A stretch of DNA of 32,000 nucleotides, from assembly GCA_016699205.1 (NCBI GenBank), contig CP064964.1, forward strand, positions 960,001 to 992,000, read 5' to 3'. The stretch comes from Candidatus Saccharimonadota bacterium. Lineage in GTDB: Bacteria > Patescibacteriota > Patescibacteriia > 2-12-FULL-60-25. Positions 935 to 30,862 of the stretch are shown here, piece by piece (position 1 is the stretch's first letter; each line of letters starts with the position of its first letter). Below the pieces are notes generated by a model. The model was given only the letters and a program-made list of their open reading frames with translations. It made no database searches and had not been told where the DNA came from. Position numbers and translations under genes: made by a program.

Positions 935-1636
935 CGATTTATACTTCCGGGAATGCTGCAAAACAGTGGATTTTAACCGAACTGCATACGCGATTTGGTG
1001 AAGCGGCTTTTAAGATTTTGGATCTCGGCTGCGGTGCAGCTGGATCATGGAAGACTTTTTTAGAGATGCATCCGCAAGCGGCGTATTTTGGATTTGATTA
1101 TGACCGAGCCGCTGTGGAAAAGGGGCGGCGTGATTTTTCTGGAATAACGAATGCTGTTTTGAAGGTGGGGGATGCGCAGACATTGTCAACGGGTGAGGCG
1201 TTTGATGTTGTGACCGCGTTTAGTGCTATCGAACATGTGGTTGATAAAGAAGCGTTTTTAAAAACGGTTTTTTCTGCATTAAAATCCGGTGGTGTGGCGT
1301 ATTTGAATTATGACGATGGGGCATTTCCGATCGACGGATATCAAGGAGCGCATCATGGTTCCGGTGAGCCAGTTATTGGCGATGATTGGTATTCAGGGTC
1401 CGTATATGAAGCATGTTGTTGATACGGAATTTTCTAAGCAGGCGGAGCAAGCGGGATTTAAGGTCATCGCTCTTCGCAAGCACAATCTCTATCCTATTAA
1501 AGGGTTTATGCGTGGAGCGTCTGAGGAGGCTGTTAAAGCCTGGTATGAATTTGAAGAGAGATTGAACGAGCTCTATACGCCTGAGCAGTTGGATAAGGTT
1601 AAATGGTCTACGACACTGGTTATAGAAAAGCCATGA
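931..1636 (+). pseudogene. Class I SAM-dependent methyltransferase with one +1 frame break
   Basis: The N-terminal part lies in ORF 886..1422 (ILDLGCGAAGSW motif I, FDVVTAFSAIEHV, LKSGGVAYLNYDDG). The C-terminal part lies in ORF 1310..1636 (HFRSTDIKERIMVPVSQLL...). Removing one G from GGGG 1318-1321 restores a single ~234-aa ORF. ATG 931 overlaps the upstream stop. Confidence 0.75.
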
Positions 1637-2767
1637 GAATTTTAATTGCCTCGGGTATTTACCCGCCAGAAGGAGGAGGGCCTTCCATTTATAGCCATGC
1701 GATGGCCCGTGCTTTGATTTCCATGGGCCACAGCGTTTCTGTTGTTGCTTACGGAGAAGAAGCGAGCTCAACGTCCGATGGTTGGCGCGTTGAGCGTGTT
1801 TCTCGTCGTGGCGGACCGATGGTCCGTTACTTCCGTTTCTTTGTTCGTGCATGGAAAGCGATGAAGTCTGCGGATGTTGTTTACTTGCAGGGCGCGGTAT
1901 CGGAAGGATTGCCGACGACGATTGCGGCGGGATTGCGTCGTATCCCGACGGTGTATCGCATTCCCGGAGATTACGCCTGGGAGATGTCGCAGCAGCGCGG
2001 CGATACGGATTTGCTCGATGCGTTTTTGGAAAAGCGGCATCGAGGTGTTATTGGTTTGTATGAACGTATTGAGCGATTTGTTGCCAAGCGCGCGAGTCGG
2101 ATTATTGCGCCAAGCAATTATTTGAAATCGGTTGCGATCCGATGGGGAATTGCATCGCCGTTTATTACGGTGATTAGAAATGCGGAAGTTGCTTTGCCCA
2201 CTGGTTTATCGCGAGAGCAAAAGCGTCGCGTTGAGCATATGGAGGGAAAGACGGTTTGTTTTACGGTTGTGCGCGCTGTGCCTTGGAAGGGCGTTGCGGA
2301 ATTGATCGAGTGGTGGAGCGGTTTGCCGGATACACATCAATTAGTAATGGCTGGAGACGGACCTGAGCTTGAGAAATGGAAAATGCTTGCAGAGAAGTCT
2401 CCGGCTGCAAATCGTATTCGGTTTGTTGGGAGGTTGAATCGTGAAGAGATTGGAAACTGGATGCGTGCATCGGATGTCTTTTTGTTACATTCCGGTTATG
2501 AGGGTTATCCGCATGTTGTCGCGGAAGCGGCATCGATGGGTGTTCCGTGCTTGGTGAGCGATCAAGGGGGGCAATCCCGAGACCAAAGAAGTTTTTGGCG
2601 ATTTGATCCAGGTTTTGCCGTATCGAAATCAGCAGGCTTGGGTTCAGGCGCTGAAAGAAGTTTCTGTTAGAACAAAGGAAGAGATTCCTGCGGCTACATG
2701 GTCGCATCGCGCGATGAGCGAGCGTGTTGAAGGCGTGTTGGTCGAGGCCGAACGAAAAGAAGGGCCG
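1633..2767 (+). pseudogene. GT4 glycosyltransferase with one +1 frame break; 3' end not defined by a stop codon
   Basis: Starts MRILIASGIYPPEGGGPSIY at ATG 1633, overlapping the upstream TGA. The motif HSGYEGYPHVVAEAASMGVPCLVSDQGG is followed by a frame switch. Dropping one G from the G6 run at 2566-2571 continues as NPETKEVFGDLIQVLPYRNQQAWVQAL in the frame of ORF 2603..3844. That frame has no stop before the next GT's Met at 2768. Confidence 0.7.
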
Positions 2768-3844
2768 ATGCAAACCCTGATGTTTTCTTTTGATCGAGCG
2801 TTGCTAGATACGGAGTCGGCATCGATGCGGCGTATTCAGGATTTGGCGGGCGAGGGGATGGTTCAGGCGGTTGTTTTGTCGCATTTCAAAACGGATGAGA
2901 TTGCGCAGGTTGATCATGTAACGGCGTATGGTTTTTCTGGATCGGGATTTATTCGTTTTTATCGTGCGATTGTGCAGGGGATTCGTATTGTTAACGCTGT
3001 ACCGAAACGAACGCTGGTTACCGCGCAAGATCCTTTTATTGCGGGGGCGGCTGCTTATCTCGTATCGAGAATCAAAAATGTTCCATTGGAAGTGCAGGAG
3101 CATGGTGATTTTTATTCTGGATATTGGAAAAAAGAATCTTGGAAGAATCGATGCTTGTCTCTTGTTGGAAGATTTGTTCTTGGGCAGGCCGAGCGCGTAC
3201 GTGTTGTTAGTGATCGTGTGAAGGAGTATTTGATTGCTGTAGGAATCAAAGCGGAGAAGATCGAGGTTATTCCGGTCGCTGTTGAGCTACCTTCCGGGAT
3301 TGTTAGGGGAGGAGGCAGTGATGTTTTTCGTTTCGTTGTTCCGTGCCGTTTTGTCGAGCAAAAAGGTTTGGATGTGTTGTTGAAAGCAGCGGCCTTGCTG
3401 AAACAGGAGAATGTTTCATTCCATCTTTCGATAATAGGCCGAGGTCCGCTGCTGAGTTCTTTGCATGGCATGATCGAGAGCAAGGGGCTGGTAAAAGAAG
3501 TTGATATTCAGGATTGGAAGGAGGGGAATGATGTTTGGAGAGATGCGGATGGCTTTGTGATGTCGTCGCGTTATGAGGGGTTTGGCCGCACGGTTCTCGA
3601 GGCGATGGCTTCCAAGGTCGCTGTTGTTGCTACGGATGTCGGTTGTGTGGGAAGTGTTTTACGACCTGGTGTTGATGGGCGAGTTGTGTCGATTGGTAAT
3701 GCGGAAGAACTAGCGGTTGCGATGAAGGCGACTATTGTCGATAAAGAATCTACAGATCGCATGATTGCGTCTGCGTATGAGCGTGCCAAGGATTTTCATC
3801 GACCAAGGCTCTTCATGAAAAACAACGCGCTGGCTGGCGTTTGA
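2768..3844 (+). CDS. GT4 glycosyltransferase
   Basis: The N-terminus MQTLMFSFDRALLDTESASMRRIQ is typical of this GT4 subgroup. The C-terminal core reads SSRYEGFGRTVLEAMASKVAVVATDVGCVGSVLRPGVDGRVV. It is in the same frame as the corrected upstream GT, so the start is chosen by homology logic only. Confidence 0.8.
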   Translation: MQTLMFSFDRALLDTESASMRRIQDLAGEGMVQAVVLSHFKTDEIAQVDHVTAYGFSGSGFIRFYRAIVQGIRIVNAVPKRTLVTAQDPFIAGAAAYLVSRIKNVPLEVQEHGDFYSGYWKKESWKNRCLSLVGRFVLGQAERVRVVSDRVKEYLIAVGIKAEKIEVIPVAVELPSGIVRGGGSDVFRFVVPCRFVEQKGLDVLLKAAALLKQENVSFHLSIIGRGPLLSSLHGMIESKGLVKEVDIQDWKEGNDVWRDADGFVMSSRYEGFGRTVLEAMASKVAVVATDVGCVGSVLRPGVDGRVVSIGNAEELAVAMKATIVDKESTDRMIASAYERAKDFHRPRLFMKNNALAGV

Positions 3845-5262
3845 TATTGAATCAGATTCTGGAAGTGCGTCCGCGATTTGATTTGTGGGTGCTTGCTTTT
3901 GTTTTGTTTGCTCTAGCAACGCGTCTTGCTTCTGCCTTCTTATTCCACAACGGATTGGTGAATCGTGAGTGGGGATTTTATACGCTGGTTGAACATTGGT
4001 TTCAGGGATACGGATACTCCTATGCAACGGAGCTCGGATGTCCGTCCGCGTACCGTTCTCCTGGCTTTCTGTTCTTTTTGACAGCTTTGTATAGCGTGAT
4101 TCGACCGGAGAATACGCTTGCACAGGCATTGATCCAGAACTTGATTGCGTGGCTTGCGTTGATTTTGGTTTATGTTGTCGGTAAGCGATTTGTTGGAAAA
4201 AAGGCTGCGCTGCTCGGGGGGGTGATGATGGCTTGTTATCCGTATACGTTTTATCATTTCACTCAGTACTATCACACGTTTCTATCGACGTTTTTTATTC
4301 TGTTTCTTGTTTGGACGCTGCTGCGTTTGAAGGAGAATAAAAAATTATCAACTGCCGTGCTCGCCGGAGCGTCGATCGGTGCTCTGGCTTATATCCAAGG
4401 CACCATTTTGCCGGCGGCACCGTTTATCGTTGCTTGGCTTTTGTGGATGTGGTGGCCGGATTGGAAGAGAACGGTGATCGTGGCGGTGATTATGGCCGTT
4501 GTTTCCGCGGGCATGATTGCGCCGTGGACGTATCGCAATTGGCAGGCGTTCCATGCGTTCGTGCCTCTGACGACGGATTTGGGGCATGGATTTTTTAAGG
4601 CGAATAATGAATATATTTACGAGATTACGAAGCGCGGATATCCGATGGAAATTGTGGATGATCCGGTTGTGTCGTCGACCAATCCGAACTACATCATGTT
4701 CACGATCCAGCCGTGGCTGCGGGAGGAATTGGAAAAAGATGGCGTATATCGCGAATCCATTTATTGGACGGAATGGCATACGAAGTATCCGGTAGGAAAA
4801 ATGGAAACCTGTTCTGAGCGCGGATTGATGAATGAAAAGCAGTTTGCGGATTATTGGGCCGGTCGATCCAAGGAATGGATGAGCAAACATTTTTGGACGG
4901 ATGCCTGGAAATTGCCACTGCAGAAATTCAAAACATTTTGGCAGCCAGGATTATTTCCAAGCGTAAAAACAGGAGCGCCGTGGTCGTTTGCGAATGATCC
5001 GACCAAGGTTTTCTTGGCGCGTTTTGCCGTCTGGTTTTCAACGCTCGTTGTCGTGTTGCTTGGTTGGCTTGGGCTTATCATCGCGATACGGCGTAAGAAA
5101 TACGAGGCGGTGCTCGTCGTGATTCTCGTCCTCGTTTACAGCTTGATGCACAGCCTGTTTGCCGGATATACCAAGTACCGCATGCCGCTCGACCATTTAT
5201 TGGCACCGTTTGCCGCCTATGTAATCGTTCTCTTGTATGAAGCTCGTCTACGTCGCAAATAG
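3841..5262 (+). CDS. Polytopic membrane glycosyltransferase, GT-C fold (ArnT/PMT-like, GT39/83-type)
   Basis: 473 aa with many hydrophobic segments and an aromatic-rich central soluble region. It has the general look of ArnT/PMT-family proteins (YPYTFYHFTQYYHTFLSTFFILFLVW). The first in-frame start is TTG 3841, which overlaps the upstream TGA (TTGA). Confidence 0.7.
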   Translation: MILNQILEVRPRFDLWVLAFVLFALATRLASAFLFHNGLVNREWGFYTLVEHWFQGYGYSYATELGCPSAYRSPGFLFFLTALYSVIRPENTLAQALIQNLIAWLALILVYVVGKRFVGKKAALLGGVMMACYPYTFYHFTQYYHTFLSTFFILFLVWTLLRLKENKKLSTAVLAGASIGALAYIQGTILPAAPFIVAWLLWMWWPDWKRTVIVAVIMAVVSAGMIAPWTYRNWQAFHAFVPLTTDLGHGFFKANNEYIYEITKRGYPMEIVDDPVVSSTNPNYIMFTIQPWLREELEKDGVYRESIYWTEWHTKYPVGKMETCSERGLMNEKQFADYWAGRSKEWMSKHFWTDAWKLPLQKFKTFWQPGLFPSVKTGAPWSFANDPTKVFLARFAVWFSTLVVVLLGWLGLIIAIRRKKYEAVLVVILVLVYSLMHSLFAGYTKYRMPLDHLLAPFAAYVIVLLYEARLRRK

Positions 5263-7799: not shown

Positions 7800-8874
7800 A
7801 TGAAATCGGTGTTTTTAGTGGCGGGCGCAAGGCCGAATTTTATCAAGATTGCGCCAATTTATGAGGCTTTGCGTAAGCAAGGCCTGGGTGTCGTATTGGT
7901 CCATACGGGCCAGCATTATGACGCCAACATGTCGGATGTTTTTTTAAAGAGTTGGGAATTCCTGATCCGGACATTCATTTGGGCGTTGGAGCTGGTGACC
8001 GCATCGCCCAATCACAAAGAATTACCGCTGCACTTATTCCTCTTTTGCAGGAGCGCAAGCCAAACGCGATTATTGTTGTTGGAGATGTGACTTCGAGCGC
8101 TGCCGGTGCGATGGCTGGTGTTGCTGCAAACATTCCTGTCGTGCACGTGGAGGCTGGATTACGTTCCCATAACTGGCGCATGCCGGAAGAATTGAACCGC
8201 ATGATCGCTGATCATCACTCGGATTATTTGTTTGTGTCGGATGAAGCGGGGCTCGAGCATCTTGAGAGCGAACGTATTCCAAAAGAAAAATCCATTACGT
8301 CGGCAATGTCATGATCGATTCGCTGCGTAAGGCGGAACCGATTGCGGAATCATCGACGATTCTTGAACAGCATTCGATCACGCCTCAATCGTACGGTGTT
8401 TTGACTCTGCATCGTCCTGAGACGGTTGATAGTCCGGAGACGCTTCGAGTGGTTTGGGAATCGCTTAAGAAGATTTCTGAAACGCTGCCGCTGATTTTTC
8501 CGGTGCATCCGCGCACTAAGTCGCGCATGCAGGAGCTTGCCGGCGAAAATTCCCGTATCAAGATCGTTGATCCGATTGGTTACATGGACATGATTAAGCT
8601 GGTGAAAAATTCCAAGCTTGTCCTGACGGATTCCGGCGGTTTGCAGGAAGAGACGACGGCGATGTCTGTTCCATGCATTACATTGCGCGATGAGACCGAA
8701 CGTCCATCAACGGTTGTTTATGGTACGAGTGAAGTGGTCGGTCGTGATCCCGAGAAAATTATCGAGGCGTTTGAACGTGCGATGCGAGGCGACTGGAAAA
8801 ACGGCGGCTTGCCTCCAAATTGGGATGGGAAGACGGCGGAGCGCATCGCGGAAATTTTAGCGAAACTTTTGTAA
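7800..8874 (+). pseudogene. wecB: UDP-N-acetylglucosamine 2-epimerase (WecB/MnaA/WbpI family) with two -1 frame breaks
   Basis: Three consecutive ORFs (7800.., 7952.., 8311..) concatenate into a full-length WecB-like protein: MKSVFLVAGARPNFIKIAPI...HTGQHYD...VHVEAGLRS...HRPETVD...FPVHPRT...TDSGGLQEE...TERP. The breaks are at the T7 run 7939-7945 (T8 expected, giving DVFFKELGIP) and the A5 run 8286-8290 (A6 expected, giving PKEKIHYVGNVMIDSL). Confidence 0.85.
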
Positions 8875-8877
8875 CGT

Positions 8878-9898
8878 ATGTCCAAACGTCTCTTGTTTAT
8901 CACGCCCAAGATCAACGACAAGGACGATGATGTAGCGTTTGCTGCTTTGTGGGCCAAGGGTTTCACGGATGCCGGTTTTGACGTGACGATTATTTGCGGC
9001 GAGAAAGGAGAGACGAGTTTGCCGAATGTGTACTCGGTCGAGCACAAGCAGGGCGGATCGCGCTTGGGATCGCTCATGCGTTTTTGGAAGCTGATGTTTA
9101 CGCTCAAATACGATCGGGTATTTGTGCACATGAACACGCGCTGGCTTGCGGCAGGTGCGTTGTATTGGAAGTTGAAAGGTATTCCGACGTATTTATGGTT
9201 CACGCATTACACGCGTACCGCGACGTTGAAGTTTGGCGAGATTGCGGTTACGCGATTTTTTTGCGCGACCAAGGAATCGCTTCCGCACTATGAAGGCGAT
9301 CCACGTAAGATCGTGACCGGTCATGGTATCGATACGGAATATTGGAATGTGCCGGAATTACCGGAGAGCGAGCGCAAAGATGCAAAGCATTTGTTGGCCG
9401 TGCATCGTATCTCGCGATCCAAACGGCTTGATATTGTGCTGCGTGCGCTTGCGTTGCTTCCGCCTGAATACACGCTGACGCATTATGGTCGTCCGCTTGA
9501 TCCGTCGGCGGATAATAATTATCAGGGCGAGATCGAGTCGCTTGTGAAAGATTTAGGTTTGACCGAGCGCGTGCGGTTTATGGGTTCGGTGCCGATGCCC
9601 TCGCTGCGTGAGATTTATCCGCGTTTCCGCGTGTTTATCAATTTGGTTCCAAAGACGATCGACAAGTCGGCGCTTGAAGCGATGTATTGCGGTTTGACGC
9701 CTGTCATTATTCAGGGGTCATGCAGATGCGATTGGGTATCCGGATTTTCCTAAGGATGAAACACCAGAAGCGATTGCCGAGTTTATTCTCGGGATGCGTA
9801 TTCACTCGCGCGAGGATTTGCGTTCGATTGTCGAGCGCGGGCATAGCATGAAATCGCTGATCGCCAAGATGTCGTCGTACATCATGCCGGGAAAATAA
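8878..9898 (+). pseudogene. GT-B (GT4-like) glycosyltransferase with one +1 frame break
   Basis: ORF 8878..9753 carries the GT-B body (HRISRSKRLDIVLRAL..., INLVPKTIDKSALEAMYCGLTPVII). Removing one G from GGGG 9714-9717 continues as QGHADAIGYPDFPKDETPEAIAEFILGMRIHSREDLRSIVERGHSMKSLIAKMSSYIMPGK, ending at TAA 9896-9898. Confidence 0.7.
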
Positions 9899-9899
9899 T

Positions 9900-11693
9900 A
9901 TGTGTGGCATTAATGGTTTTACATGGCGTGATCCCGGGCTCTTGCGAAAAATGCATGAGCTGACGAGTCATCGCGGTCCGGATGATCAGGGGTTATGGGA
10001 AACCGAGTCCGTGTCTTTTGCGCACAATCGGCTTTCGATTATTGATTTGTCGCCAGGCGGGCATCAGCCGATGGCCTCGCCGGACGGACGATTTACGATT
10101 GTTTTTAATGGGGAGATCTATAATTATCGCGAGCTTCGGTCGCAGTTGTCAGGGGTCAGGTTTCAGTCGGGGTCGGATACGGAGGTTTTGTTGGCTGCAT
10201 GGGAGGCTTGGGGAGAGAAGTGTTTGGAAAAATTGAATGGGATTTTTGCGTTTGCGCTTTGGGATCGTGATGAAAAGAGTTTGCGGCTCGTGCGCGATCA
10301 GATCGGCGTAAAGCCATTGTATTATTTTTATGACGGCAAGCATCTTGCGTTTTCATCTGAGATGAAGGCGCTTTTGCCGATTTTGTCTGAGCGCAAGATC
10401 GACCGTGAAGCGCTGAATGCGTATTTCCGATTGTTGTATGTTCCCGGCGAGAAGACGATGGTGGAGGGTCTCAAGCGTTTGATGCCAGGACATGTCGCGA
10501 CATTTAAAGATGGAGCGTTTGACATTAAGCCGTTTTGGAAATTACAGGAAGGTGCCAGTATCGGTAGTTATGAAGAAGCGGTAGCCGGTGTGCGCGAGCG
10601 CTTGAAGGCGTCGGTTGCAAGGCAACTGGTTTCAGATCGACCTGTGGGCGTGTTTTTGTCCGGAGGCATCGATTCATCGGCTATTCTTGGGTTAGCGAGC
10701 GAAGCGGCTAGTGGACCGCTGAAGGCGTTTACGGTTTCTTACGCCTCGGATTTTCAACAAGAAAAATACAACGCCGATGCAGAGCTTGCTGCAAAGACCG
10801 CAAAACATTTTGGCGCAGAACATCATGTGATTAGATTGGATGCGATGATGGCGCGTGATTTATTTGAGACAACGGCTTGGCACATGGATGAGCCGGTCGC
10901 AAATCATATCCAAACATCGACGTATGCGCTCGCGCAATTTGCCAAGCCGGAAATTACGGTGGCGCTCGGAGGCGACGGCGGTGATGAATTGTTTGGAGGG
11001 TATCCGCGCTATTGGTATGCGGCGCAATTGAATCGATTGCATCGTTTGCCTTTCCCTTGGAGTATTTTTCAATTTGCGCCCAAGGATTCTTGGAAAAAAT
11101 TGGCAGCCAAGTCTGGGTTGGAACGGCATCTTTCTTTTGTAGCGCAAAAAGAGGCGGATATTTCATCTGTCTTGAAACGAGAGATGAATGATCCGTTTGC
11201 AACATCAATGATTCTCTCGCCATATTTTTCTGGTTCTTGGAAAGACCAGACGAACTGGTTGCCGGATGAATCGCTTATCAGAACGGACCGTCTGACGATG
11301 GCTCATGGATTGGAGCAGCGCGTCCCTATTTTGGATGTTGATTTGGTCGAGTACGCGTTCCGTATTCCTTCGAAATATAAATTAGGCGACCGTAAACAGG
11401 GGAAGCGCGTGCTGATCGATGCGATGAAGCCGTGGATTGCTCCGCATCTTTTGAATGAGGAGAAACGAGCTTGGAATTCACCGATGGCCAAGTGGATTCG
11501 AGGTCCGCTTTTGCCTTTTATGAAGGAGATTCTCTCACCAGGATATGCTCCGGGCAGTGAAGCGTATCTCGATTTTGATGGTCTTCAGGCTATGCTTAAA
11601 GATCATGTCGATGTGCGTAAATATGCTCTGGCTCCGCTATGGTCAGCGGTTTCTTTTCAGCTCTGGTATAAGCAGGTTTTTTCTGGTAAATAA
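9900..11693 (+). CDS. asnB: Asparagine synthase (glutamine-hydrolysing) family amidotransferase; intact paralog 1
   Basis: Begins MCGI (N-terminal nucleophile Cys2) and carries GEIYNYRELR, SDTEV and the PP-loop SGGIDSS. It is an uninterrupted 597-aa ORF. Confidence 0.9.
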   Translation: MCGINGFTWRDPGLLRKMHELTSHRGPDDQGLWETESVSFAHNRLSIIDLSPGGHQPMASPDGRFTIVFNGEIYNYRELRSQLSGVRFQSGSDTEVLLAAWEAWGEKCLEKLNGIFAFALWDRDEKSLRLVRDQIGVKPLYYFYDGKHLAFSSEMKALLPILSERKIDREALNAYFRLLYVPGEKTMVEGLKRLMPGHVATFKDGAFDIKPFWKLQEGASIGSYEEAVAGVRERLKASVARQLVSDRPVGVFLSGGIDSSAILGLASEAASGPLKAFTVSYASDFQQEKYNADAELAAKTAKHFGAEHHVIRLDAMMARDLFETTAWHMDEPVANHIQTSTYALAQFAKPEITVALGGDGGDELFGGYPRYWYAAQLNRLHRLPFPWSIFQFAPKDSWKKLAAKSGLERHLSFVAQKEADISSVLKREMNDPFATSMILSPYFSGSWKDQTNWLPDESLIRTDRLTMAHGLEQRVPILDVDLVEYAFRIPSKYKLGDRKQGKRVLIDAMKPWIAPHLLNEEKRAWNSPMAKWIRGPLLPFMKEILSPGYAPGSEAYLDFDGLQAMLKDHVDVRKYALAPLWSAVSFQLWYKQVFSGK

Positions 11694-11698
11694 GCGCT

Positions 11699-13272: not shown

Positions 13273-13276
13273 TATT

Positions 13277-14281: not shown

Positions 14282-14328
14282 AGCTAACCCTTGATTTTGA
14301 GGGCTGTTTTTGCTAGGTTTGACCTGCC

Positions 14329-15770: not shown

Positions 15771-15773
15771 ACC

Positions 15774-16308: not shown

Positions 16309-16316
16309 ATCAAAAA

Positions 16317-16352: not shown

Positions 16353-16353
16353 A

Positions 16354-17247: not shown

Positions 17248-17359
17248 AGAAATCAGAAGAAGACTAACATGGTGAAATCAAGCTTGAAAGGGCGTTGATA
17301 GGCTAGGGATAAAGTTCTTGCATAAAGCTGTTTTTACCTGCTAAGGTGCGGGCAATTGT
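17248..17359. promoter_or_regulatory. Divergent intergenic region, presumed promoters for the minus-strand methyltransferase and the DegT-GT2 gene
   Basis: This is one of only two non-coding gaps over 100 nt in the window, and it sits between divergently oriented genes. Weak sigma70-like pairs are present (TTGAAA 17284-17289 with GATAAA 17308-17313; TTGCAT 17318-17323 with TAAGGT 17342-17347). None is convincing. Confidence 0.3.
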
Positions 17360-19150: not shown

Positions 19151-19270
19151 TGAGATGTCTCGCATATATCCAAGGTAAAATTGTCACGCCATGGGCCTAC
19201 GAGCGAGTATTTTTGGTTTACAAGTATCGTATCGTGAAGGGTTATTGGCACCGGTTAAATCAAAATCCGT

Positions 19271-20050: not shown

Positions 20051-20055
20051 CTATT

Positions 20056-20799: not shown

Positions 20800-21659
20800 A
20801 ATCACTTTCGGTCATCATTCCGGCACTAAATGAAGCAGATGGAATTGCTCCTACGCTCGACCGAATCAAGGCCGTTGCCCAAGTCCAAGGATGGGATTTG
20901 GAGCTGATTGTTGTTGATGATGGCAGCAAGGATGGGACTGGGGATAAGGCTCGGGAAGCAGGCGCGACTGTTATCCGGCATCCCACGAACGGGGGATACG
21001 GCTTGTCTTTGCAGGATGGAATCCGTCTTGCGAAGCATCCGTTGGTTGCGATTACGGATGCAGACGGTACCTATCCGATCGAAGAGCTGCCAAAGCTGTA
21101 CTCGATGGTTGCGGACGAGGGTTACGATATGGCTGTTGGTGCTAGAACCGGTACGGAGTATAAAAAGGGACTGCTCAAATATCCGGCACGCATCATGTTC
21201 CGATTACTTGCCGAATATGTCGCGGGACGTCGTATCCCGGATATCAATTCTGGTTTGCGCGTCATGCGCCGCGAGAAATTACTGCCGCATCTCTCGCGAA
21301 CCTGTCTTGGATTTTCTTTCACGACATCGATCACGCTGATTTTTTTCTTGAACGGCTTTTTTGTCGGATACACGCCGATCAATTATGCGGTGCGTATGGG
21401 TAAGAGCAAGGTGCGTCACATTAAAGATACGCTACGTACGACGCAGATTATGGTGTCAGTGATTGCGCACTATAATCCATTGAAATTGTTTTTGCTGATC
21501 GCGCTTTTCTGTTTGCTCGCTGCATTGGTTGCGGTGTTTTTGGGATGGCTGATCGGTAGCACGTGGCTAGGATGGGTTTCAGCTGTATTAGTTGGCGCTG
21601 CTCCGATCTGTTTTGCTGTGGGTTGTTTGTCTGAAGGTGTAAGACTTTCGTCGACTTAA
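20796..21659 (+). CDS. GT2 glycosyltransferase with C-terminal transmembrane helices (GtrB/ArnC/Dpm1-like polyprenol-phosphate glycosyltransferase)
   Basis: Has LSVIIPALNEADGI...LIVVDDGSKDGT...AITDADGTYP, followed by two hydrophobic C-terminal segments (LFLLIALFCLLAALVAVFLGWLIG and VSAVLVGAAPICFAVGCL). ATGA overlap with the upstream gene. Confidence 0.85.
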   Translation: MKSLSVIIPALNEADGIAPTLDRIKAVAQVQGWDLELIVVDDGSKDGTGDKAREAGATVIRHPTNGGYGLSLQDGIRLAKHPLVAITDADGTYPIEELPKLYSMVADEGYDMAVGARTGTEYKKGLLKYPARIMFRLLAEYVAGRRIPDINSGLRVMRREKLLPHLSRTCLGFSFTTSITLIFFLNGFFVGYTPINYAVRMGKSKVRHIKDTLRTTQIMVSVIAHYNPLKLFLLIALFCLLAALVAVFLGWLIGSTWLGWVSAVLVGAAPICFAVGCLSEGVRLSST

Positions 21660-22399
21660 ATTTTTCTCCACTGGGCGACCAGCATTCCTGATGCGAATCG
21701 TTTTGAGAAAATGGGCGACAGCCACTTTTCTAGTTTGAACAAGAAGGGCGATAGTATCGTTTTTAATTTCTTTGGCATTCTCCAGACCATGGAATTCAGA
21801 ACAAATATGTACGCCGGACCACCGATATACGTACAAGATATCTCTTGGAAATGTCCTGACGATTTTTGAAGAAGTTCCTCGTAATTGATCGCCTCTTCAT
21901 TTTCTTCGAAGAGATTATCGATGCTGTACCACATTTTGCGAATGATGTTCAGGAACGATTTGTCATGCGGTTCGGCAAAACACAATATTCCATTTGGCCT
22001 CAGTAATCGATGAAATTCCTTAATCCCTTCCATCGTGTGCGGCGGAAGGTGATGCAACCCGCCCACAATACAGATTACGTCGTAGGTGTTTGCAGGTAGG
22101 TTGGTTTTGGTTGCAGAGGCATGCACGGTGCGTGTTTGCGGGCGTTTTTCTTGATAGATGCTTAGTGCATTGCTAGAGATATCCAAAGCGGTAATACTAG
22201 CGTGGTTCCTAACAAGAAAGTCTCCGCAAGCTCCGGAGCCGCACATGGCCTCCATAACTTCTTTACCCGCCAGATCGATGTTTTTAAACAGATGCGGGTT
22301 TAAAAATTCCTCACGATATTTCTCGCTTTCAGCGTCGTGATAGTGGCTGTCGTATAGCGAGATAATGTTGTCGTAGTGCGCTTCCTGGGAGGATTCCAT
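21656..22399 (-). CDS. Class I SAM-dependent methyltransferase
   Basis: Has VMEAMCGSGACGDFL (motif I), ALDIS, YDVICIVGGLHHLP and LLRPNGILCFAEP. Its stop overlaps the stop of the convergent GT2 gene (TTAA 21656-21659). Confidence 0.8.
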   Translation of the reverse strand: MESSQEAHYDNIISLYDSHYHDAESEKYREEFLNPHLFKNIDLAGKEVMEAMCGSGACGDFLVRNHASITALDISSNALSIYQEKRPQTRTVHASATKTNLPANTYDVICIVGGLHHLPPHTMEGIKEFHRLLRPNGILCFAEPHDKSFLNIIRKMWYSIDNLFEENEEAINYEELLQKSSGHFQEISCTYIGGPAYIFVLNSMVWRMPKKLKTILSPFLFKLEKWLSPIFSKRFASGMLVAQWRKI

Positions 22400-22436
22400 A
22401 GATGTATGATTATTATGCTGTATTGATTTTTTGTCT

Positions 22437-23831
22437 ATGTTCCAACGATTACATGCCTTCGGCTTTGTTCGAATGAAGTATTTTGTGCTTTTGCTCGCTT
22501 TGATCGTTGGTTCGTATTACATCATTGCAAGTCCTGGTGTTTTGGAGGCAGACGCATCTCAATATCATGAAATGGCGCTCGGATTGACCTCTGGGCAGGG
22601 TTTTATTTTGGAGGGTGAAGTCAGTATGGAGCGCGAGCCATTGTATCCGTTGTTTCGGGCCGGATTATTGATGCTTGGCATAGATGTATCTGGCATCCTG
22701 TGGGTACAGCTTGCGTTTTTGATCTTTGCGCTTTGGGTTTTTATGCTCGTACTTGAGCGATTTTCCCATGCTCAGGCGCTTTGGAGCGGGGCGATCGCGG
22801 CTGTATATCCAGGATTCATGATTTGGCCATCTCTTCATCTTTCTGAAAGTCTATCCATTTTTCTTTTAGCAATTTTTTGTTATTTGTATGATCGTGCTTT
22901 GTCGCATGATGCTGCCCTACGTCAATCATGGTGGAAATTCTGCATGTTGGGTATTGTCTGCGGTTTACTGATATTAACCAAGGCTGCATATCTTCTTTTG
23001 CCAATCGTTATTGTTATCGCTATCTGTTTTCAAAGCAAAGTCGCGAAGCTCGCTAAGGCTTCACTATTTTTTGTTTTGGTTTTGGCGGTATTAATGCCAT
23101 GGCTGTATCGTAATCATGTGCGTTTTGATCGATGGAGTATCACGAATCGATCCGGATGGATGGTTTATGCGCGTGGTATCAAGACGGAGTTTTCTTGGGG
23201 GCAGCTATTGCAAACCGGTGCTTCAGTTCTAGTTGGGGAGTCTGTTTTAGTCTGGCTCGATCCAGAAGCTCGGCCGATCGTTCGTCAACAATGGGTTGAG
23301 CCGCTCCAATCTGTTATTGCGATGAGAAAAGAGGGTGTTTCCTATGTTGAAATCGATCGGGTATTTATGGAACGCGGAAAAGAAAAACTGTTTTCACATC
23401 CGGCAAACTTGCTGCGTTATGCCGCTTGGATACCAATTGAGACGGTACGGTTGCTCGCTTTTGTGTCGCCGCGTTCGCCGCTTTTTAATGTCGAGCAAAT
23501 GTTTATCGTTGAAGCGCGCGCAGAGGCACTTTCTTGGTTCAAAATTGTTCTGCTTGCTGTTTTACATTTTTTTCAGTTCGTTTGGATTGTCTCGATTTTT
23601 ACCGGGTTGGTTATTCTTCTGCGACGAGGTCTGTTCTTTCAAATCAATATAGTGCTCGTATTGTATACGATTGGGATTTATGTTTTATTCGATTCCATCG
23701 CGCGTTACAGTGCTCCTGTTTTTCCGTTATTGGTTAGCTTGGCTTGCGTTGGTTTTGGTTGGCATGTCTCAGGTTTGAAAACGTTTTCTCGCTTTTTAAG
23801 CAAGCTGGCTTTTTTAAAGCCAGCGCGCTAG
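22437..23831 (+). CDS. Polytopic membrane glycosyltransferase, GT-C fold (ArnT/PMT-like)
   Basis: About 465 aa, hydrophobic throughout. An early loop (EADASQYHEMALGLTSGQGF...EREPLYPLF) resembles the first extracytoplasmic loop of ArnT/PMT-type enzymes. The start is ambiguous: TTG 22431, ATG 22437 or ATG 22473. Confidence 0.65.
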   Translation: MFQRLHAFGFVRMKYFVLLLALIVGSYYIIASPGVLEADASQYHEMALGLTSGQGFILEGEVSMEREPLYPLFRAGLLMLGIDVSGILWVQLAFLIFALWVFMLVLERFSHAQALWSGAIAAVYPGFMIWPSLHLSESLSIFLLAIFCYLYDRALSHDAALRQSWWKFCMLGIVCGLLILTKAAYLLLPIVIVIAICFQSKVAKLAKASLFFVLVLAVLMPWLYRNHVRFDRWSITNRSGWMVYARGIKTEFSWGQLLQTGASVLVGESVLVWLDPEARPIVRQQWVEPLQSVIAMRKEGVSYVEIDRVFMERGKEKLFSHPANLLRYAAWIPIETVRLLAFVSPRSPLFNVEQMFIVEARAEALSWFKIVLLAVLHFFQFVWIVSIFTGLVILLRRGLFFQINIVLVLYTIGIYVLFDSIARYSAPVFPLLVSLACVGFGWHVSGLKTFSRFLSKLAFLKPAR

Positions 23832-23844
23832 GATCGTTGGAACT

Positions 23845-25059
23845 ATGAAAATTGCGATGGTGACTGACAGTTTGTATCCATGGGTGGGCGGGTCAGAAAC
23901 GGCGATTCGTATGCATGTAAAGACGATGCGATCCATGGGGCACGACGTGCGCGTCTATGGTCTTTTTGATCAAGTCGAGTCACCTGGCGAGGATGTACCT
24001 ACGATAAAAGTTTCGAGCCGCTGGATGGGTCTTCCGCTTAAGATCTATGGACGATATCGAAATTTACGACGTGAATTATTGTCTTTTAAACCCGATGTGA
24101 TCAATGCCCATTTTATGCTCCAATCCGGATGGGCCGGTGTCGCTTGCGGGAAGTCCTTGGGTATTCCGACGGTAGTAAGTGTGCGAGGTAAAGGTGTTTT
24201 TTATCGGCCGAAAAGCTGGCTCGAGGTTCTGGCGTTCCCGATCTTTCGTCACCGCTCATTAACCGCAGACGCGATGCTTGCGACAAGCGAAGAGATGGCG
24301 GATATGGTGTTATGGCGGTGGGGCTTTAAGCCAACGCCGCTTGCTAATGGTGTTGAGACGCATCTTTTTCATCCGGACGTTGATGGCTCTTCCATACGGC
24401 GCGAACTTGGTTTGGAGGGTAAGCGTGTTATTTTCTGCGCGCGAAGGTTGGTTGTTAAAAATGGTATTCAGTATCTCGTAAAGGCATTGCCCAGGATCGC
24501 AAAAGCAGTGCCTGATGTGCAGCTTGTACTCGCTGCTCCAAAAGAACGTGAGTATGAAAATTTGATTGCTGATGCTAAGCAGCTGGGTGTTTTTGATCGG
24601 ATGCATTTTGTCGGACAAGTTGATCACGATGTGCTGCCTCAGTACTTTGCGATGGCTGACGTCGTTGTTCAGCCGTCGCTCGCTGAAGCGAGGAGTTTGT
24701 CGTGTCTTGAGGCGATGGCATCTGGCAGTGCTATCGTTGCTACTGCTACAGGTGGATTGGCCGAGTTGTTAACGCATCGTCTCGATGGATATCTTGTCCC
24801 GCCGTTTGAGCCGAGTACGTATCATGTTTCGGCCCCAAAAGAAGAAGGTGTGCAGAATCTCGCGGCTGCAGTGATTGAAGTTTTGTCGGATGATGTGTTG
24901 CGAGCCTCCCTTGAGAAAAACGCGCGAGAATCGAGTTTGCAATACGATTGGTCTCAGACTTCTACGCGTACGCTTGAGATTTATCAGCAGGCAATGAAGA
25001 TTCATGAGCAGGGTGGCCGTCGGTACAGCTGGTGGTCCTATTTTGGGTTTGATCGCTAA
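23845..25059 (+). CDS. GT4 glycosyltransferase
   Basis: Starts MKIAMVTDSLYPWVGGSETAIRMHVKTMRSMGHDVRVYG. The C-terminal core reads VQPSLAEARSLSCLEAMASGSAIVATATGGLAELLTHRLDGYLV. Confidence 0.85.
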   Translation: MKIAMVTDSLYPWVGGSETAIRMHVKTMRSMGHDVRVYGLFDQVESPGEDVPTIKVSSRWMGLPLKIYGRYRNLRRELLSFKPDVINAHFMLQSGWAGVACGKSLGIPTVVSVRGKGVFYRPKSWLEVLAFPIFRHRSLTADAMLATSEEMADMVLWRWGFKPTPLANGVETHLFHPDVDGSSIRRELGLEGKRVIFCARRLVVKNGIQYLVKALPRIAKAVPDVQLVLAAPKEREYENLIADAKQLGVFDRMHFVGQVDHDVLPQYFAMADVVVQPSLAEARSLSCLEAMASGSAIVATATGGLAELLTHRLDGYLVPPFEPSTYHVSAPKEEGVQNLAAAVIEVLSDDVLRASLEKNARESSLQYDWSQTSTRTLEIYQQAMKIHEQGGRRYSWWSYFGFDR

Positions 25060-25061
25060 CT

Positions 25062-26910
25062 ATGTGCGGGATTGCCGGCAAAGTTGGGCCTGGCATCGGC
25101 CATGATCATCAAGATGATGTTTTGAAGGCCGCGCAACTCGTTTCGTATCGAGGGCCGAATGGCTGTCATGTTGATACGGTGCCTGGCGCCTCTTTTTCTC
25201 AGGCGCGCTTATCAATTATCGATTTGCATCAACGATCCGATCAGCCTTTTTTGGTCGTCGGATCGTCGTTACATGATGGTTTATAACGGTGAAATTTATA
25301 ACTACCTCGGAGTTACGCTCCGGAGCTTGTTGCCTTGGGTTGGACGTTCCGTACAGAAGGCGATACAGAGGTCGTTATTGCTGCATATCAACAGTGGGGA
25401 GATGCTTGTTGGAATCGTATGAACGGAATGTGGGCGGTGGCGATTTGGGATACAGGGACCCATTCGTTAACGCTTAGTCGTGACAGGTTTGGCGTCAAGC
25501 CCCTCTACTACTCTCTCGCTGGGGATTCTCTAGTCTTTGGTTCGGAAATAAAGCAGGTGCAGCAATTAATTGGTTGGACGCCTGATCCGAATTGGAGAGA
25601 GGTGTTACTCATGCTGGATCGAAGGAACATCAATAAACGTGAAACGGTTTTTCTTGATATCTATCAGCTTGAAAATGGGTCTTTGCTAACCTATCGATTG
25701 GATGACGAGTCGAGACCTGTTTTGCGTCCTTGGTATGCGATGTCTACGCAGTCGACGGAATTAGCTTACGGTTGATGCGACGGTGCAGCGCTTCCGCGAG
25801 TTATTTATCGATAGTGTGCGTTTACGCTTACGTAGCGATGTTCCGGTTGGAATTTGCTTGTCAGGTGGGTTAGATTCGAGCGCGATTGCTTGTGTTATGG
25901 CGCGTGAACTTGGAGTTACGCCGCACGCGTTCAGCGTTGTTTACCAGGATCCTCGGTATTCGGAGGAGCGCTATATGGATGCCGTGGTTGCACATACGGG
26001 AGCCAATGGCGAAAAGATTTTTCCCTCCGGACAACAGTTTATTGAATCTATTCAGAAAATCGTTTGGCATCACGATGAGCCGCTTCAGATGCCAGGCACA
26101 TTCTCGCAGTGGGGGGTTATGTCTTTAGCTGGTAAATCCGTACGCGTTGTGCTTGATGGACAAGGCGGGGATGAAGTTGCTGGAGGTTATCCTTCTTTTC
26201 ACCCGGCCCTTTTTAGAGGTCTTGTTCGGGATCTTGTGTCTTCACGTGCGGCGAGTGCGTATCGTGAGATTGTCGAGATTGTTCAGGTGCAAGGTGAATA
26301 TGGTTCATCGCTTAAGCATTTAATCGGCGAGTCTCTATTTCCGAGCACTAAACTGCCAAGCCGCACGTTGCGTTTATTAACTAAACAATATGCAACGCGC
26401 ATATCGGGCACGCAGATCGCGCTCTCCTTCCGTGATGCCTTAGCAACGGAAATGTACAGGCAATTTGATCTGGAAAATTTGCCTATGCTTCTCAAGTATG
26501 AAGATCGGATTAGTATGGCGCACTCTATTGAGTCGCGTGCTCCATTTATGGACTATCGATTAGTCGAATTTTGCTTTGGCCTGCCCTATCAATACAAGAT
26601 AAAGGGTTCGAGCATGAAATGGATTTTACGGCAGGCGCTGCAAGATTTGTTGCCAGCTGCCGTCCGCGATCGCCGGGATAAAAAAGGATTCCCAACGCCG
26701 CTAGCTGAATGGATGAAGCGTGATGTGGGCGCGTGGATGCGTTCTCAAGTTGGTCAGGCTTTTGAAGTTCGACCAGAGCTGCGAGAGATTTTTCAGCCTG
26801 AGGAAATTGACCGGTGTTTTGTTGAGCATCAAACCGGACGTGCTAATCACGAAAGGATTTTGTTTCGTGTTTTTACGACGATGCTTTGGTATCGTCAGTG
26901 GTATTCCTAG
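25062..26910 (+). pseudogene. asnB: Asparagine synthase-family amidotransferase, paralog 2, with four +1 frame breaks
   Basis: Four ORF pieces (25062.., 25159.., 25335.., 25783..) concatenate to MCGIAG...RLSIIDL...QPF[W/L]SSDRRYMMVYNGEIYNY.ELRSELVALGWTFRTEGDTEVV...RDRFGVKPLYY...DATVQRFRELFIDSVRLRLRSDVPVGICLSGGLDSS.... The breaks are near 25247-25253, 25306-25310, 25322 and 25770-25771. Confidence 0.85.
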
Positions 26911-28147
26911 AGGATGCGCGTGGATAGGTGAGCGGAATGCCGGTAAGGCGGGTGAGGGTTTTTGAAATAACGGCGCCCCAAGCGCCAAAGAGCGGGATCA
27001 GGATGACGTTGCTCGCGATTTGAAGCACGGTATTAACTCCATAGAACTGCCACAGCGCTTTTACGTTGTGATGTGCTTGGAAATAGTTGATGCCGACGAT
27101 GGATGCTAGTCCAAAAAGGCCGATAGCGTAAACGATTGAAGGTAGAACCTCATTTCCATATTGCGGGAATAGCAGCGGAATGGCGATCGGGGCGATCACG
27201 ACGTAAGACGCGATCATGAGTCCCGATAATCCGAGCATCGTCCAAAAATGCTTGCGTGTCTGTGCGAGCGTTTTTTGATTTTGTTCGCGTGTCGAGAAAC
27301 GGCGCAGCATCACGCCTCCGATCGCATTCACGAAATCCTTCATCTGCTCCGGAATCAGCGTTGCGATGCTGTAGTTGGCGAGCGTCCCGTATCCGGCAAG
27401 ACTTTGCAGCAGAATTTGGTCGAGCTGTGCGGCGAGTGCTTGGATGATGCCGATCGCGTTCAGGTGGTCGCCGAGTTTTACGTGTTCGTCGGCGGAGCCT
27501 TGTTTTGGCAATTTACGGATCTCATTCCAGGTGATGAAGCCGCGGAATAAAATATCGAGACCGAGATAGGCAAAGAAGACGGGGAGCAGTTCTTTGGTTT
27601 TCCAGATGACGAAAAAGAAACACATGGCAAAAATGGTGTTATTGATCACGGCGATTTTTGTCAGACGCTGGATGCGTTCTTGTCCTGTCAGAATCGATCC
27701 GTATAAACCGCAGATGGCGTAGACCGGAAAGAGCGCGCCGGAGAAGGCGAGGGCCATAGCGACATGCGTTTCACCCACATACCAGCGCTCGATCGCCGCG
27801 ATCAAGAGCACGAGCGAACCGAGCGGAGCGATCATGAGGATCCGTTTCATGCCGGCCCAAACAACGATCGTATCGCCTTTAGCAATTCCGCGAATAATTC
27901 CGGCGCTGACTCCACCGGCGGCAAACATTCCGGCAAGCGCAAACATGGCGAGGACATAGCGGAATTCACCCATGGTGTTTCTCGGCAACCAACGAGCCAT
28001 GAGAAATGTCGTCGCGACACCGCGTAGCACACCGCTCGCTTGTCCAAAGCCTAGCCAAACAAAAGACTTGCCGTAGAAGCGCACATCAAAGCCAAGGGCT
28101 TGTGTGACTCGGTCCAAAGCTTTGCTACTTGATTGACGCAGTTCCAT
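26873..28147 (-). CDS. MOP-superfamily polysaccharide flippase (Wzx/'polysaccharide biosynthesis protein' type)
   Basis: A polytopic protein of about 425 aa with the general pattern of Wzx/MurJ-type transporters. The start is taken at MELRQSSSKALDRV (28147). The listed start at 28288 would overlap the divergent methyltransferase. The 3' end overlaps asnB-2 by 38 nt. Confidence 0.7.
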   Translation of the reverse strand: MELRQSSSKALDRVTQALGFDVRFYGKSFVWLGFGQASGVLRGVATTFLMARWLPRNTMGEFRYVLAMFALAGMFAAGGVSAGIIRGIAKGDTIVVWAGMKRILMIAPLGSLVLLIAAIERWYVGETHVAMALAFSGALFPVYAICGLYGSILTGQERIQRLTKIAVINNTIFAMCFFFVIWKTKELLPVFFAYLGLDILFRGFITWNEIRKLPKQGSADEHVKLGDHLNAIGIIQALAAQLDQILLQSLAGYGTLANYSIATLIPEQMKDFVNAIGGVMLRRFSTREQNQKTLAQTRKHFWTMLGLSGLMIASYVVIAPIAIPLLFPQYGNEVLPSIVYAIGLFGLASIVGINYFQAHHNVKALWQFYGVNTVLQIASNVILIPLFGAWGAVISKTLTRLTGIPLTYPRASSRNTTDDTKASS

Positions 28148-28165: not shown

Positions 28166-28998
28166 ATGATCACTTTTTTGCGCCATATGGTAGAGAATAA
28201 GGACTTTTACGCCGAACATTCCGATCAGATTTGGGAAAAGCGTTTTGCGTCTCCGTTTCCTATCCGGAGATATGCACACACGACGCAATACGAGGCGATT
28301 TTAGCGCATGTGAAAGCCGGGAATCGGTTTTGGATTCCGGCTGCGGCGAGGGTGTTATTCCGATCATGCTTGCCAAACGTGGGATCGCGTCGACGGGAAG
28401 CGATTTATCACGGCCAAATATCGAACATGCCAATCAGTTGGCAAAATCACAAGGTGTAGAATCGCTCACGACCTTTCTGGAAGCTGATGCCGAACGTCTT
28501 CCGTTTGCCGACAGGTCGTTTGATGTTGTGATCAGCTCACATGTGCTCGAGCATCTGCCTGATTTTGATCAGGGGTTCCGCGAGCTGTGTCGTGTGGCTC
28601 GTAAGCGGGTTATCGTTGCTTTACCGACCGGCTTGAATGCTAGCGCTATGGCGCTTCTAGGTGGCGATCATGGATATTGGAAGCTCGGTAAGAAGTCCTT
28701 TGTTGCATTGCCGTGGGGATTTTTACGTGTATTATTTGGCGTTTTTGGTGAAGGGGTTCAGGAGGGCTATGCCGGACATGATGAATTGCCGCATATTTGG
28801 CGATACCCGTGGGTGATGCGCCGACGCTTGCAGCATCCTGAATGGAAGTTGGTTTCTTTTGAGGCGAGCACGCTTGTCATGCCGTATTTTAATTTCTTAT
28901 TGCCAGTCGCCAAGTTTTTGGATCGATATCGCTCTGCTCCGATTTTGCGTAATTTTGGGTACGGATCGATTGCGGTTTTTGAACGGATCGATTCTTGA
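28166..28998 (+). pseudogene. Class I SAM-dependent methyltransferase with one -1 frame break
   Basis: The N-terminus is in ORF 28133..28459 (ENKDFYAEHSDQIWEKRFASPFPIRRYAHTTQYEAILAHVKAGNR). The rest is in ORF 28231..28998 (LDSGCGEGVIPIMLAKRG..., LPFADRSFDVVISSHVLEHL). The break is at GG 28326-28327 or the T4 run 28328-28331. The start may be ATG 28166 or 28187. Confidence 0.7.
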
Positions 28999-29000
28999 TT

Positions 29001-30862
29001 ATGTGCGGACTTGCCGGCTTTGCCGGATCTGGGGATCGGCGGAGGCCTTACGCAAGATGGCGAAGGCCATCGAGCGGCGCGGGCCTGATGATGACGGTTT
29101 TTTTGAAGCGCCTGGAGTCGGATTTGGTTTTCGACGATTGAGTATTATCGATGTTGGTGGCGGTCATCAGCCTTTATCAAATGAAGATGGTAGCGTGCAG
29201 GTCATGTTGAATGGCGAGATTTATGGATTCCAGAGACTGCGCGATGCATTGTTAGCGGATGGTTATCGTTTCAAGACAAAGTCCGATACGGAAGTCATTG
29301 TGCATGCGTATGCCAAATGGGGAGATGCGTGTTTTGAAAAATTGGACGGCATGTTTGCGATTGCGATTTGGGATGCAAAGGAGCGGCGTCTTGTGATCGC
29401 GCGTGATCGGCTCGGGAAGAAGCCGATGTATTGGACGGTGAACAATAATACGATTTGGTTTGCATCAGAACTGAAAGCGTTGCTGGCTGCGCGCGTTGTT
29501 GAGAAAAAGATCGACCTCGTTTCTTTGGCTGCTTATTTCAGGAGCGATGCTGTGCCAACGCCGCGCTCCATGTTTGAGGGCGTTTCAAAATTGCCGCCAG
29601 CTTCTGCCATGTCATGGAAAGATGGAAGTATTGAAAAGACTTGGAAGTTTTGGAGCTGCCCGCAGGAAACGATCGACTAAAGAGATCCGGTTGCGGGATT
29701 GCGTGAACGGTTTGATCTTGCCGTGAAAGAGCGTTTGGTTTCCGATGTGCCGCTCGGATTATTTTTGTCCGGCGGACTTGATTCGACAGCGGTTGCGGAG
29801 AGCGCGAGTCGGCAATCTTCAACAAAACTCAAGGCATTTACTATTGGATTTGATGACAAGTCGCATGATGAGTCGGAGGCTGCGGCGTTGGTCGCAAAGT
29901 CGCTGGGGCTTGAGCACTATGTTGAAAAATTAACCGCGGAATCGGCTTTGTCGATGATGCATGAGGCGACAGAGATGTTGGATGAGCCTTTGGCGGATGC
30001 GGCCGTGCTGCCGCAATTATTGTTGTCTCGATTTGCGAGAAAACAGGTAACTGTTGCTTTGAGCGGTGATGGCGGTGATGAATTGCTTATTGGTTATCAG
30101 CATATTCCAGCACATCGAGTGGTTGAAGCATTGCCTGCGATTTCCCGTTTTGGATCGCGTGTCGCGCAAAAACTTCCGGCTGGAGGAGGGTATTTTAGTT
30201 TGGGATTTAAGGCGCAGCGATTTGCGCGGGGAGCATCCATTGAAAATCGTTTGGCGAGAGATTTGGCTTGGCGCGGCGCGGTAGACGCATCGACGTTGAA
30301 GCAGATTCTTGATTCGCGGGTTTTATTGAACGCTGATCCGGATTGGTCTGAGCGTTTGTTGACTGAGTATGCTGCTGAAGCTGGGAATGATTTTGATGGA
30401 TGGCGCGGATGGTCTTGGGCGTATCTCCGAAGTTTCCTGATGGATGAAGTTTTGGTGAAAGTGGATCGGGCGACGATGTGGTTTTCTCTCGAGTCTCGTG
30501 CGCCGCTGCTTGATCGACGCGTTGTTGAATATCTTCTCGCTTTGCCGACCAAGTACAAGACGGGTGCTTGGGGGAAGAAACGGCTGTTGCGTGAGCTTGT
30601 GAAGGGGCGCGTGCCGTCGGAGATACTTGATAAGCCAAAGCATGGTTTTGGTGTACCGGTAGCTGATTGGTTGCGAGGGCCGTTGAAATCGATGTTGTTG
30701 GAATTAACAGCGACGGATCGACTGCGTGAGCAGGGATTATTCCGACCAGAAGGTGTTGAACAGCTCGTGAGCGACCATATTTCCGGGAGAATTGATCGAA
30801 GAAAAGAGCTTTGGGCGATGCTTCAATTTCAGCTCTGGCATTCCAAATTCTTTCGTGATTAG
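29001..30862 (+). pseudogene. asnB: Asparagine synthase-family amidotransferase, paralog 3; 5'-proximal frame break plus an in-frame TAA at the interdomain linker
   Basis: ATG 29001 gives MCGLAGFAGSGD, and the frame is then lost around 29031-29044. It continues in ORF 28859..29680 (AEALRKMAKAIERRGPDDDG...NGEIYGF...SDTEV...). TAA 29678-29680 is in the same frame as the downstream ORF 29699..30862 (LRERFDLAVKERLVSDVPLGLFLSGGLDST...). Confidence 0.85.

Follow-up and report, generated by a model that had tools for sequence, protein, structure and literature searches.

The window (the whole 32-kb stretch of DNA that was analysed) belongs to G000, a 1.08-Mb Candidatus Uhrbacteria genome from wastewater that was recovered as a single-contig metagenome assembly. 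It holds a sugar-chain (glycan) gene cluster, whose broken genes encode glycosyltransferases and sugar-modifying enzymes; an Rfam search of the window found nothing. Lesions were placed by comparison with three collinear congeners (G004, G001 and G003), with near-identical conspecific proteins (P0001, used for asnB-2, is encoded on a near-identical JGI contig) and with short-read Logan contigs from other wastewater samples (X1, X2, X3 and X9), none of the listed runs containing more than 0.69 of the sampled words. The contig comparison was confined to the parts of the window outside 1318-3796 and 28319-29680, and contigs bridging positions 7939, 8286, 9714 and 14681 were absent, which speaks neither for nor against the lesions there. 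Scans of metagenome and genome-contig sets from which near relatives are excluded yielded only distant asnB homologs. A chimeric origin was considered because the genome has two compositional halves, and was rejected: G000 is collinear with G004 along the whole chromosome and the composition pattern is common to both. The lesions are the following.

1318-1321, + strand: one base added to a methyltransferase gene, G3 to G4; three congeners read GAC/GAT-GGG/GGA-CA, one base shorter, and tblastn changes frame at 1319-1326
2566-2572, + strand: one base added to the GT4-GT4-PMT_2 fusion gene in GGGGGGC, G5 to G6 or an added C; congener alignment
3793-3796, + strand: one base lost from the same fusion gene, T5 to T4; frame 2 passes to frame 1 at 3787-3796
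7939-7945, + strand: one base lost from wecB-like epimerase 1, T8 to T7; T8 in G004 and G001, TCT6 in G003
8286-8290, + strand: one base lost from wecB-like epimerase 1, A6 to A5; alignment gap at 8287, G001 reading GAG AAA ATT
9714-9717, + strand: one base added to a GT4 gene, G3 to G4; CA-AGG/CGG, one base shorter, in three congeners
12447-12500, + strand: wecB-like epimerase 2 with about 89 nt lost or replaced; its alignments with G004 and G003 show gaps of 4+59+22+4 nt
12700-12900, + strand: degraded 5' half of a methyltransferase gene, with several indels of 6-14 nt; alignment with the G001 ortholog
14681-14682, + strand: one base lost from a DegT-like gene between AC and GGC (relatives GCG GGC); gap at 14681 against G004 and G001, tblastn frame switch
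25247-25252, + strand: one base added to asnB-2, T5 to T6; P0001 reads DQPFWSS, and the X1, X2 and X9 contigs have one letter fewer at 25247
25309-25310, + strand: one base added to asnB-2, CTCGAG to CTCGGAG; P0001 reads NYLELRS, and the X1 and X2 contigs are one letter short at 25310
25322-25323, + strand: one base added to asnB-2, TCCGAG to TCCGGAG; P0001, and X1 and X2 contigs one letter short at 25322
25766-25767, + strand: a T added to asnB-2, GCT ACG to GCTTACG; P0001 reads ELATVDA, and the X1 and X2 contigs are one letter short at 25766
28319-28321, + strand: one base lost from a methyltransferase gene, the third of a GGN Gly codon; GGC/GGT GAG in three congeners
29031-29034, + strand: one base lost from asnB-3 in a single deletion, GGN GGA to GGGGA; congener alignment
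29678-29680, + strand: in-frame TAA in asnB-3, CAA to TAA at a conspecific Gln; P0121-8 read ETIDQ(R/I/A/T)DPV where the window has ETID, stop, RDPV

An earlier sequence-only reading of the window had proposed a directional rule, with insertions adding a G and deletions falling in A/T runs, and had attributed it to one systematic process. The comparisons kept seven of its placements and moved or recast six. The extensions of G3 to G4 at 1318-1321 and 9714-9717, the extra G at about 25309 and at 25322, and the deletions in the T run at 7939-7945 and the A run at 8286-8290 all lie where that reading had put them. The extension of G5 to G6 at 2566-2571 holds as one extra base, although the base could be a C instead; the conspecific proteins P0233-5 (1212-1223 aa) run uninterrupted through this break, reading SDQGGNPETKEVF. 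The base supposed to turn ACGT into ACGGT at 25770 proved to be the T at 25766-67. Two G insertions proposed in asnB-3 at 29034-45 give way to the one deletion at 29031-34, GGCGGAGG being native, and the conspecific proteins P0121-6 begin MCGLAGFAGSGGSAEALRK at this break. In the methyltransferase gene broken at 28319-28321 the missing base had been assigned to the T4 run at 28328-31; the run is uninvolved, and ESVLDSGCGEG stands in frame 3' of the Gly codon at 28319-28321. The supposed T5 deletion at 12484-88 is part of the loss or replacement of about 89 nt, where 113 letters of a near-identical X9 contig correspond to 28 in the window. A change of GG to GGG at 12901-03 was likewise replaced by the multi-indel stretch, across which X9 has 93 letters against 73 in the window, with many small extra letters at 12860-12881. 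The deletion attributed to a C3 run at 14685-14702 moves to 14681/82. The extra T in the T run at 25247-52, the T5 to T4 change at 3793-3796, where one more T is needed to match the ...ERAE(A/S)FSS... of the relatives, and the CAA to TAA stop at 29678-80 had been overlooked. The larger lesions, namely the loss of about 89 nt, the decay of the methyltransferase gene and the stop codon, may be real strain differences or local misassembly.

The directional rule falls because the lesions, once correctly placed, include T insertions and G-context deletions. Insertions in the window add G five times and T twice, and four of the seven lengthen a run to at least 4, the other three not; deletions comprise three in A/T runs and three in G contexts (Gly or Thr codons). 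The share of G (5/7) has a nominal p of 0.025 taken post hoc, and the asymmetry of bases between insertions and deletions is not significant (Fisher p 0.17-0.59). Outside the window G accounts for at most two of about seven insertions (T, A or G, A, T, G?, C, T), so that insertions show no G bias there. The apparent bias would stem from the low count of events, on a coding strand rich in G, and from several misplaced lesions. Deletions keep part of what had been claimed for them: three of the six in the window, and 7/16 outside it, touch an A/T run of at least 4, whereas such runs make up about 5% (5.3%) of positions (p 9e-6 for the deletions outside). This link between deletions and homopolymers is the only part of the proposed pattern that survives genome-wide.

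Frame breaks along the chromosome were counted as in-gene events under one stringent filter, by comparison with the entire G004 genome. The 32-kb window contains 8 of about 34, against 1.2 expected (Poisson p 4e-5), so that lesions are roughly eightfold denser in it than on average in the genome. In the reverse control, in which G000 reading frames were placed on G004 DNA with the same filter, 13 events were obtained; four or more of these mirror breaks of G000 itself, and the control therefore sets only an upper bound on the errors of G004. The earlier observation is partly confirmed: the breaks are present in the deposited sequence and far denser than in the rest of the genome, but they do not appear to be a biological feature.

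The one-base frame breaks are probably consensus errors of the assembly, with a probability of roughly 0.8. This reading is drawn from their absence in independent data of the same species and from breaks of the same type in essential genes. None of the four asnB-2 insertions is present in the contigs of X1 and X2, and X9 likewise lacks one; a single length was found at these sites among the contigs compared. Three of the four gaps are the sole differences between the window and a 782-nt X2 contig. X1 differs from the window over 19931-27899 by about 82 substitutions and four indels, and all four indels lie in asnB-2, next to only two substitutions in its 1.28 kb. Intact conspecific proteins exist for asnB-2, asnB-3 and the glycosyltransferase fusion (92-98% identity) and cover the lesions at 2566-72, 3793-96, 29031-34 and 29678, and every broken gene of the window is uninterrupted in the three congeners. 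Elsewhere in the genome the single-copy essential genes for EF-Tu, DnaK and DnaE are frameshifted, at 898534, 403975 and 145265 respectively, as are those for a ClpB/C-type ATPase, RecG, RecJ and RseP. Moreover, G000 contains a poly-C/poly-G junk stretch of about 1.3 kb (G000:285790-287100) that is lacking from the syntenic site of G004. Of the two causes that the earlier reading had offered, a basecalling or polishing artefact is supported and a mutational signature is not.

On this reading the assembly carries a background of indel errors along the whole chromosome, deletions chiefly shortening A/T runs and insertions favouring no particular base. The window is a strain-variable glycan island where error correction is presumably poor, which would account for the roughly eightfold error density. 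Against consensus errors stand the insertions that extend no homopolymer (CGAG to CGGAG twice, CT to CTT and the added base of EF-Tu, outside any homopolymer), which are less typical of homopolymer miscalling, and also the loss of about 89 nt, the multi-indel stretch and the C to T stop, which are not classic consensus errors. The poly-C junk, moreover, looks more like an artefact of short-read two-colour chemistry.

Those three larger lesions would be expected if the glycan island had recently become a set of true pseudogenes in one strain, through small indels, a deletion and a stop codon. The raised lesion density fits this view, and so does the variability of the island among strains, in that neither X1 nor X2 covers 9.2-19.9 kb and position 12749 is connected with 27485 in a contig of X3. 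Such pseudogenisation is nevertheless unlikely. Four frameshifts beside two substitutions in asnB-2, relative to a near-identical strain, are unlike neutral decay; divergence from G004 is no greater for the pieces of broken genes (72-92% amino-acid identity by tblastn) than for intact neighbours (75-92%); and the same types of lesion occur in EF-Tu, DnaK and DnaE, which the cell cannot do without.

A sequence-specific error that adds G at CGAG sites or G runs, perhaps tied to methylation, is compatible with consensus error for some sites and is itself improbable. Two certain YCGAG to YCGGAG insertions lie 13 nt apart in asnB-2, and a third may occur at G000:737459 (GCGAGT to GCGGAGT); a case at 363657 is better explained by another inserted base. 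Only 2-3 of the 2969 CGGAG sites on both strands coincide with frame breaks, which leaves CGGAG unproven as a general error motif, and insertions outside the window lack a G bias. A single N6-adenine methyltransferase of HsdM type is encoded in the genome (219911-220852), whereas neither a Dcm-type nor a Dam-type methylase turned up. It is very unlikely that the island is truly decaying through a context-dependent mutation that adds G at CGAG or short G runs and shortens A/T runs, with assembly errors confined to the essential genes; such decay would switch off surface-glycan genes. Phase variation, programmed frameshifting or transcriptional slippage at homopolymers can hardly be entertained, since, although the broken genes are of the usual contingency-locus class and several breaks lie within runs (T7, A5, G6), the tracts are mostly short (G3-G6, T4-T7), 6 of 13 single-base breaks fall outside runs of at least 4, as many as four occur in one gene, housekeeping genes are broken alike and the asnB-2 sites do not vary in length among the contigs compared.

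Because consensus errors of the assembly are the most likely source of the breaks, the finding is an ordinary one; its value is practical and it brings no new biology. G000 serves as species representative despite its junk stretch and its false frame breaks, of which there are about 34 or more. Anyone who calls genes, counts pseudogenes or infers metabolism from it will be misled, in the glycan island most of all, where it would wrongly suggest that working epimerases, asparagine-synthase-like amidotransferases and the large fused glycosyltransferase are missing, all of which are intact in close relatives.

Slipped-strand contingency loci of surface-polysaccharide genes also show homopolymer frame breaks inside glycosyltransferase-type genes; unlike them, G000 has tracts that are too short, several breaks in one gene, breaks that also affect housekeeping genes or lie outside runs, and no mixture of tract lengths at the asnB-2 sites. 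Ordinary bacterial pseudogenes of variable islands resemble the window in its larger deletion, its stop and the gene remnant adjoining in the glycan island, but here the broken genes have no extra divergence and the ratio of indels to substitutions against a near-identical strain is far too high. Homopolymer indels that break genes are documented in Nanopore consensus assemblies (PMC9262707). G000 departs from that class of error in its several insertions outside homopolymers, the concentration in one island and the poly-C junk, and agrees with it in that one-base indels split conserved, even essential, genes genome-wide, deletions are concentrated in A/T homopolymers and the lesions are lacking in independent short-read data from this species.

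The window is a glycan-biosynthesis island with several GT4 and GT2 glycosyltransferases, methyltransferases, two UDP-GlcNAc 2-epimerase-like and four asparagine-synthase-like genes, a GFO/IDH/MocA oxidoreductase and a DegT-like gene, on a G- and T-rich plus strand (G 29%, T 28.5%, A 22%, C 20%). Wastewater and sludge metagenomes from 11 studies contain this stretch. The source genome (G000) is one contig of 1,082,254 bases, whose plus-strand GC skew is almost never negative, with one bin of -0.11 near 660 kb. The half from ~640 kb via the numbering origin to 120 kb has a GC of ~0.50 and a skew of +0.1 to +0.19, the remaining half a GC of ~0.54 and a skew near 0; this pattern belongs to the lineage and does not reflect a chimera, because the congener G004 has it too and both genomes are collinear.

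The locus is collinear in three congeners (G004, G001 and G003; 75-77% nucleotide identity, all genes uninterrupted), whose DNA was aligned around every frame switch. The gene asnB-2 is absent from all three, and its lesions were set to the base by the intact, 98%-identical protein P0001; those of asnB-3 and of the glycosyltransferase fusion were set by intact conspecific proteins (P0121-6, 95-98%, and P0233-5, 92-95%, respectively). Positions 7900-27899 were also compared with contigs from four independent wastewater runs (X1, X2, X3 and X9).

Lesions in the window: position, strand, change
1318-21, +, +1, G3 to G4
2566-72, +, +1, GGGGGGC with one base too many
3793-96, +, -1, T5 to T4
7939-45, +, -1, T8 to T7
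8286-90, +, -1, A6 to A5
9714-17, +, +1, G3 to G4
12447-12500, +, loss or replacement of ~89 nt
~12700-12900, +, methyltransferase with degraded 5' half, several indels of 6-14 nt
14681/82, +, -1 at AC/GGC
25247-52, +, asnB-2, +1, T5 to T6
25309-10, +, asnB-2, +1, CTCGAG to CTCGGAG
25322-23, +, asnB-2, +1, TCCGAG to TCCGGAG
25766-67, +, asnB-2, +1, extra T
28319-21, +, -1, third base of the GGN codon preceding GAA
29031-34, +, asnB-3, -1, GGN GGA to GGGGA
29678-80, +, asnB-3, stop, CAA to TAA

The pieces at 1603-5262, three ORFs in the window, form in relatives a single GT4-GT4-PMT_2 protein of ~1,210-1,225 aa, a fusion conserved across dozens of Uhrbacteria and Patescibacteria assemblies; hence the junction at 3841 is a break, despite looking like a normal gene overlap. 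The sequence-only reading had proposed one systematic process in which insertions always add a G and deletions mostly fall in A/T runs. The reference alignments agree with seven of its placements, contradict six and add two single-base lesions that it overlooked. After correction, the window holds five G and two T insertions, and deletions are equally divided between A/T runs and G-rich codon contexts (three each). On a strand that is 29% G, finding G in five of seven insertions has a nominal p of 0.025 for a post hoc choice, and the base asymmetry between insertions and deletions gives a Fisher p of 0.17-0.59. Two of the three CGGAG sites cited are indeed insertion sites, but at 29034-45 the GGCGGAGG is native.

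Frame breaks were surveyed genome-wide by searching G000 with all open frames of at least 100 aa from the entire G004 genome (1.02 Mb) for adjacent matches in differing frames. A stringent filter left 39 events, ~34 of them in genes and 8 in the window, where 1.2 were expected (p 4e-5). G is not favoured among the ~7 insertions outside the window (T, A or G, A, T, possibly G, C, T), and 7 of the ~16 single-base deletions there touch an A/T run of at least 4, compared with 5.3% of positions (p 9e-6). Two frame breaks relative to G004 involve more than one base: a PP2C-like gene has lost 7 nt (G000:C1:763722) and a gene of 591 aa has lost 2 nt (G000:C1:577339). The broken genes include EF-Tu (a +1 outside any homopolymer), DnaK and DNA polymerase III alpha (DnaE), all three single-copy in G000, together with a ClpB/C-type ATPase, RecG, RecJ, RseP, a PilB-type ATPase, Lgt and phosphoglucose isomerase.

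The larger lesions may reflect genuine strain differences or local misassembly. The island is strain-variable: X1 and X2 contigs fully cover 19.9-27.9 kb and none of 9.2-19.9 kb, and an X3 contig joins 12749 to 27485 with 38 other letters between, therefore ~14.7 kb is missing or replaced in some populations. A near-identical X9 contig carries 113 letters against 28 in the window, with many small extra letters at 12860-12881. G004 lacks ~21.6-26.9 kb. In contigs of X1 and X9, the 125-nt segment at 20154-20280 keeps its length but is highly diverged, with dense SNP clusters on both sides; it looks like a between-strain recombination tract. We infer that mixed strains or low depth may have left the island poorly corrected, which would account for the excess of frame breaks in the window.

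A methylation-linked origin of the YCGGAG insertions is a minor possibility. The change YCGAG to YCGGAG is common to two certain insertions and one possible, and G000 has 2969 CGGAG sites. A single clear DNA methyltransferase was detected, of the HsdM N6-adenine type (G000:C1:219911-220852, 372 bits to PF02384); an N6_N4 match lies below threshold, and a search of G000 for Dcm-type or Dam-type enzymes found none.

The basecalling or polishing artefact also suggested from sequence is, in contrast to the base rule, sustained: with a probability of about four in five, the single-base lesions are consensus errors. This reading is favoured because exactly the four extra asnB-2 bases are missing in X1 and X2 contigs (at one site also in X9), a 782-nt X2 contig being otherwise identical to the window. 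Between 19931 and 27899, X1 differs by ~82 substitutions and 4 indels, and all four indels lie within 520 nt of asnB-2 that hold only 2 substitutions, a ratio that neutral decay does not produce. Moreover, no extra divergence from G004 was found in broken genes compared with intact neighbours, and a sole EF-Tu, DnaK or DnaE is not losable by a cell. The assembly also contains, outside the window at G000:C1:285790-287100, ~1.3 kb of poly-C/poly-G (runs of C122, C89, C53, C50 and G35, T runs between), intergenic, with a gene's stop on one side and a terminator hairpin on the other, and without counterpart at the syntenic G004 site, which looks like an assembly artefact inside a 'complete' contig. 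Together with this junk, a precedent argues for consensus errors, as gene-splitting consensus indels are documented in Nanopore-type assemblies (PMC9262707).
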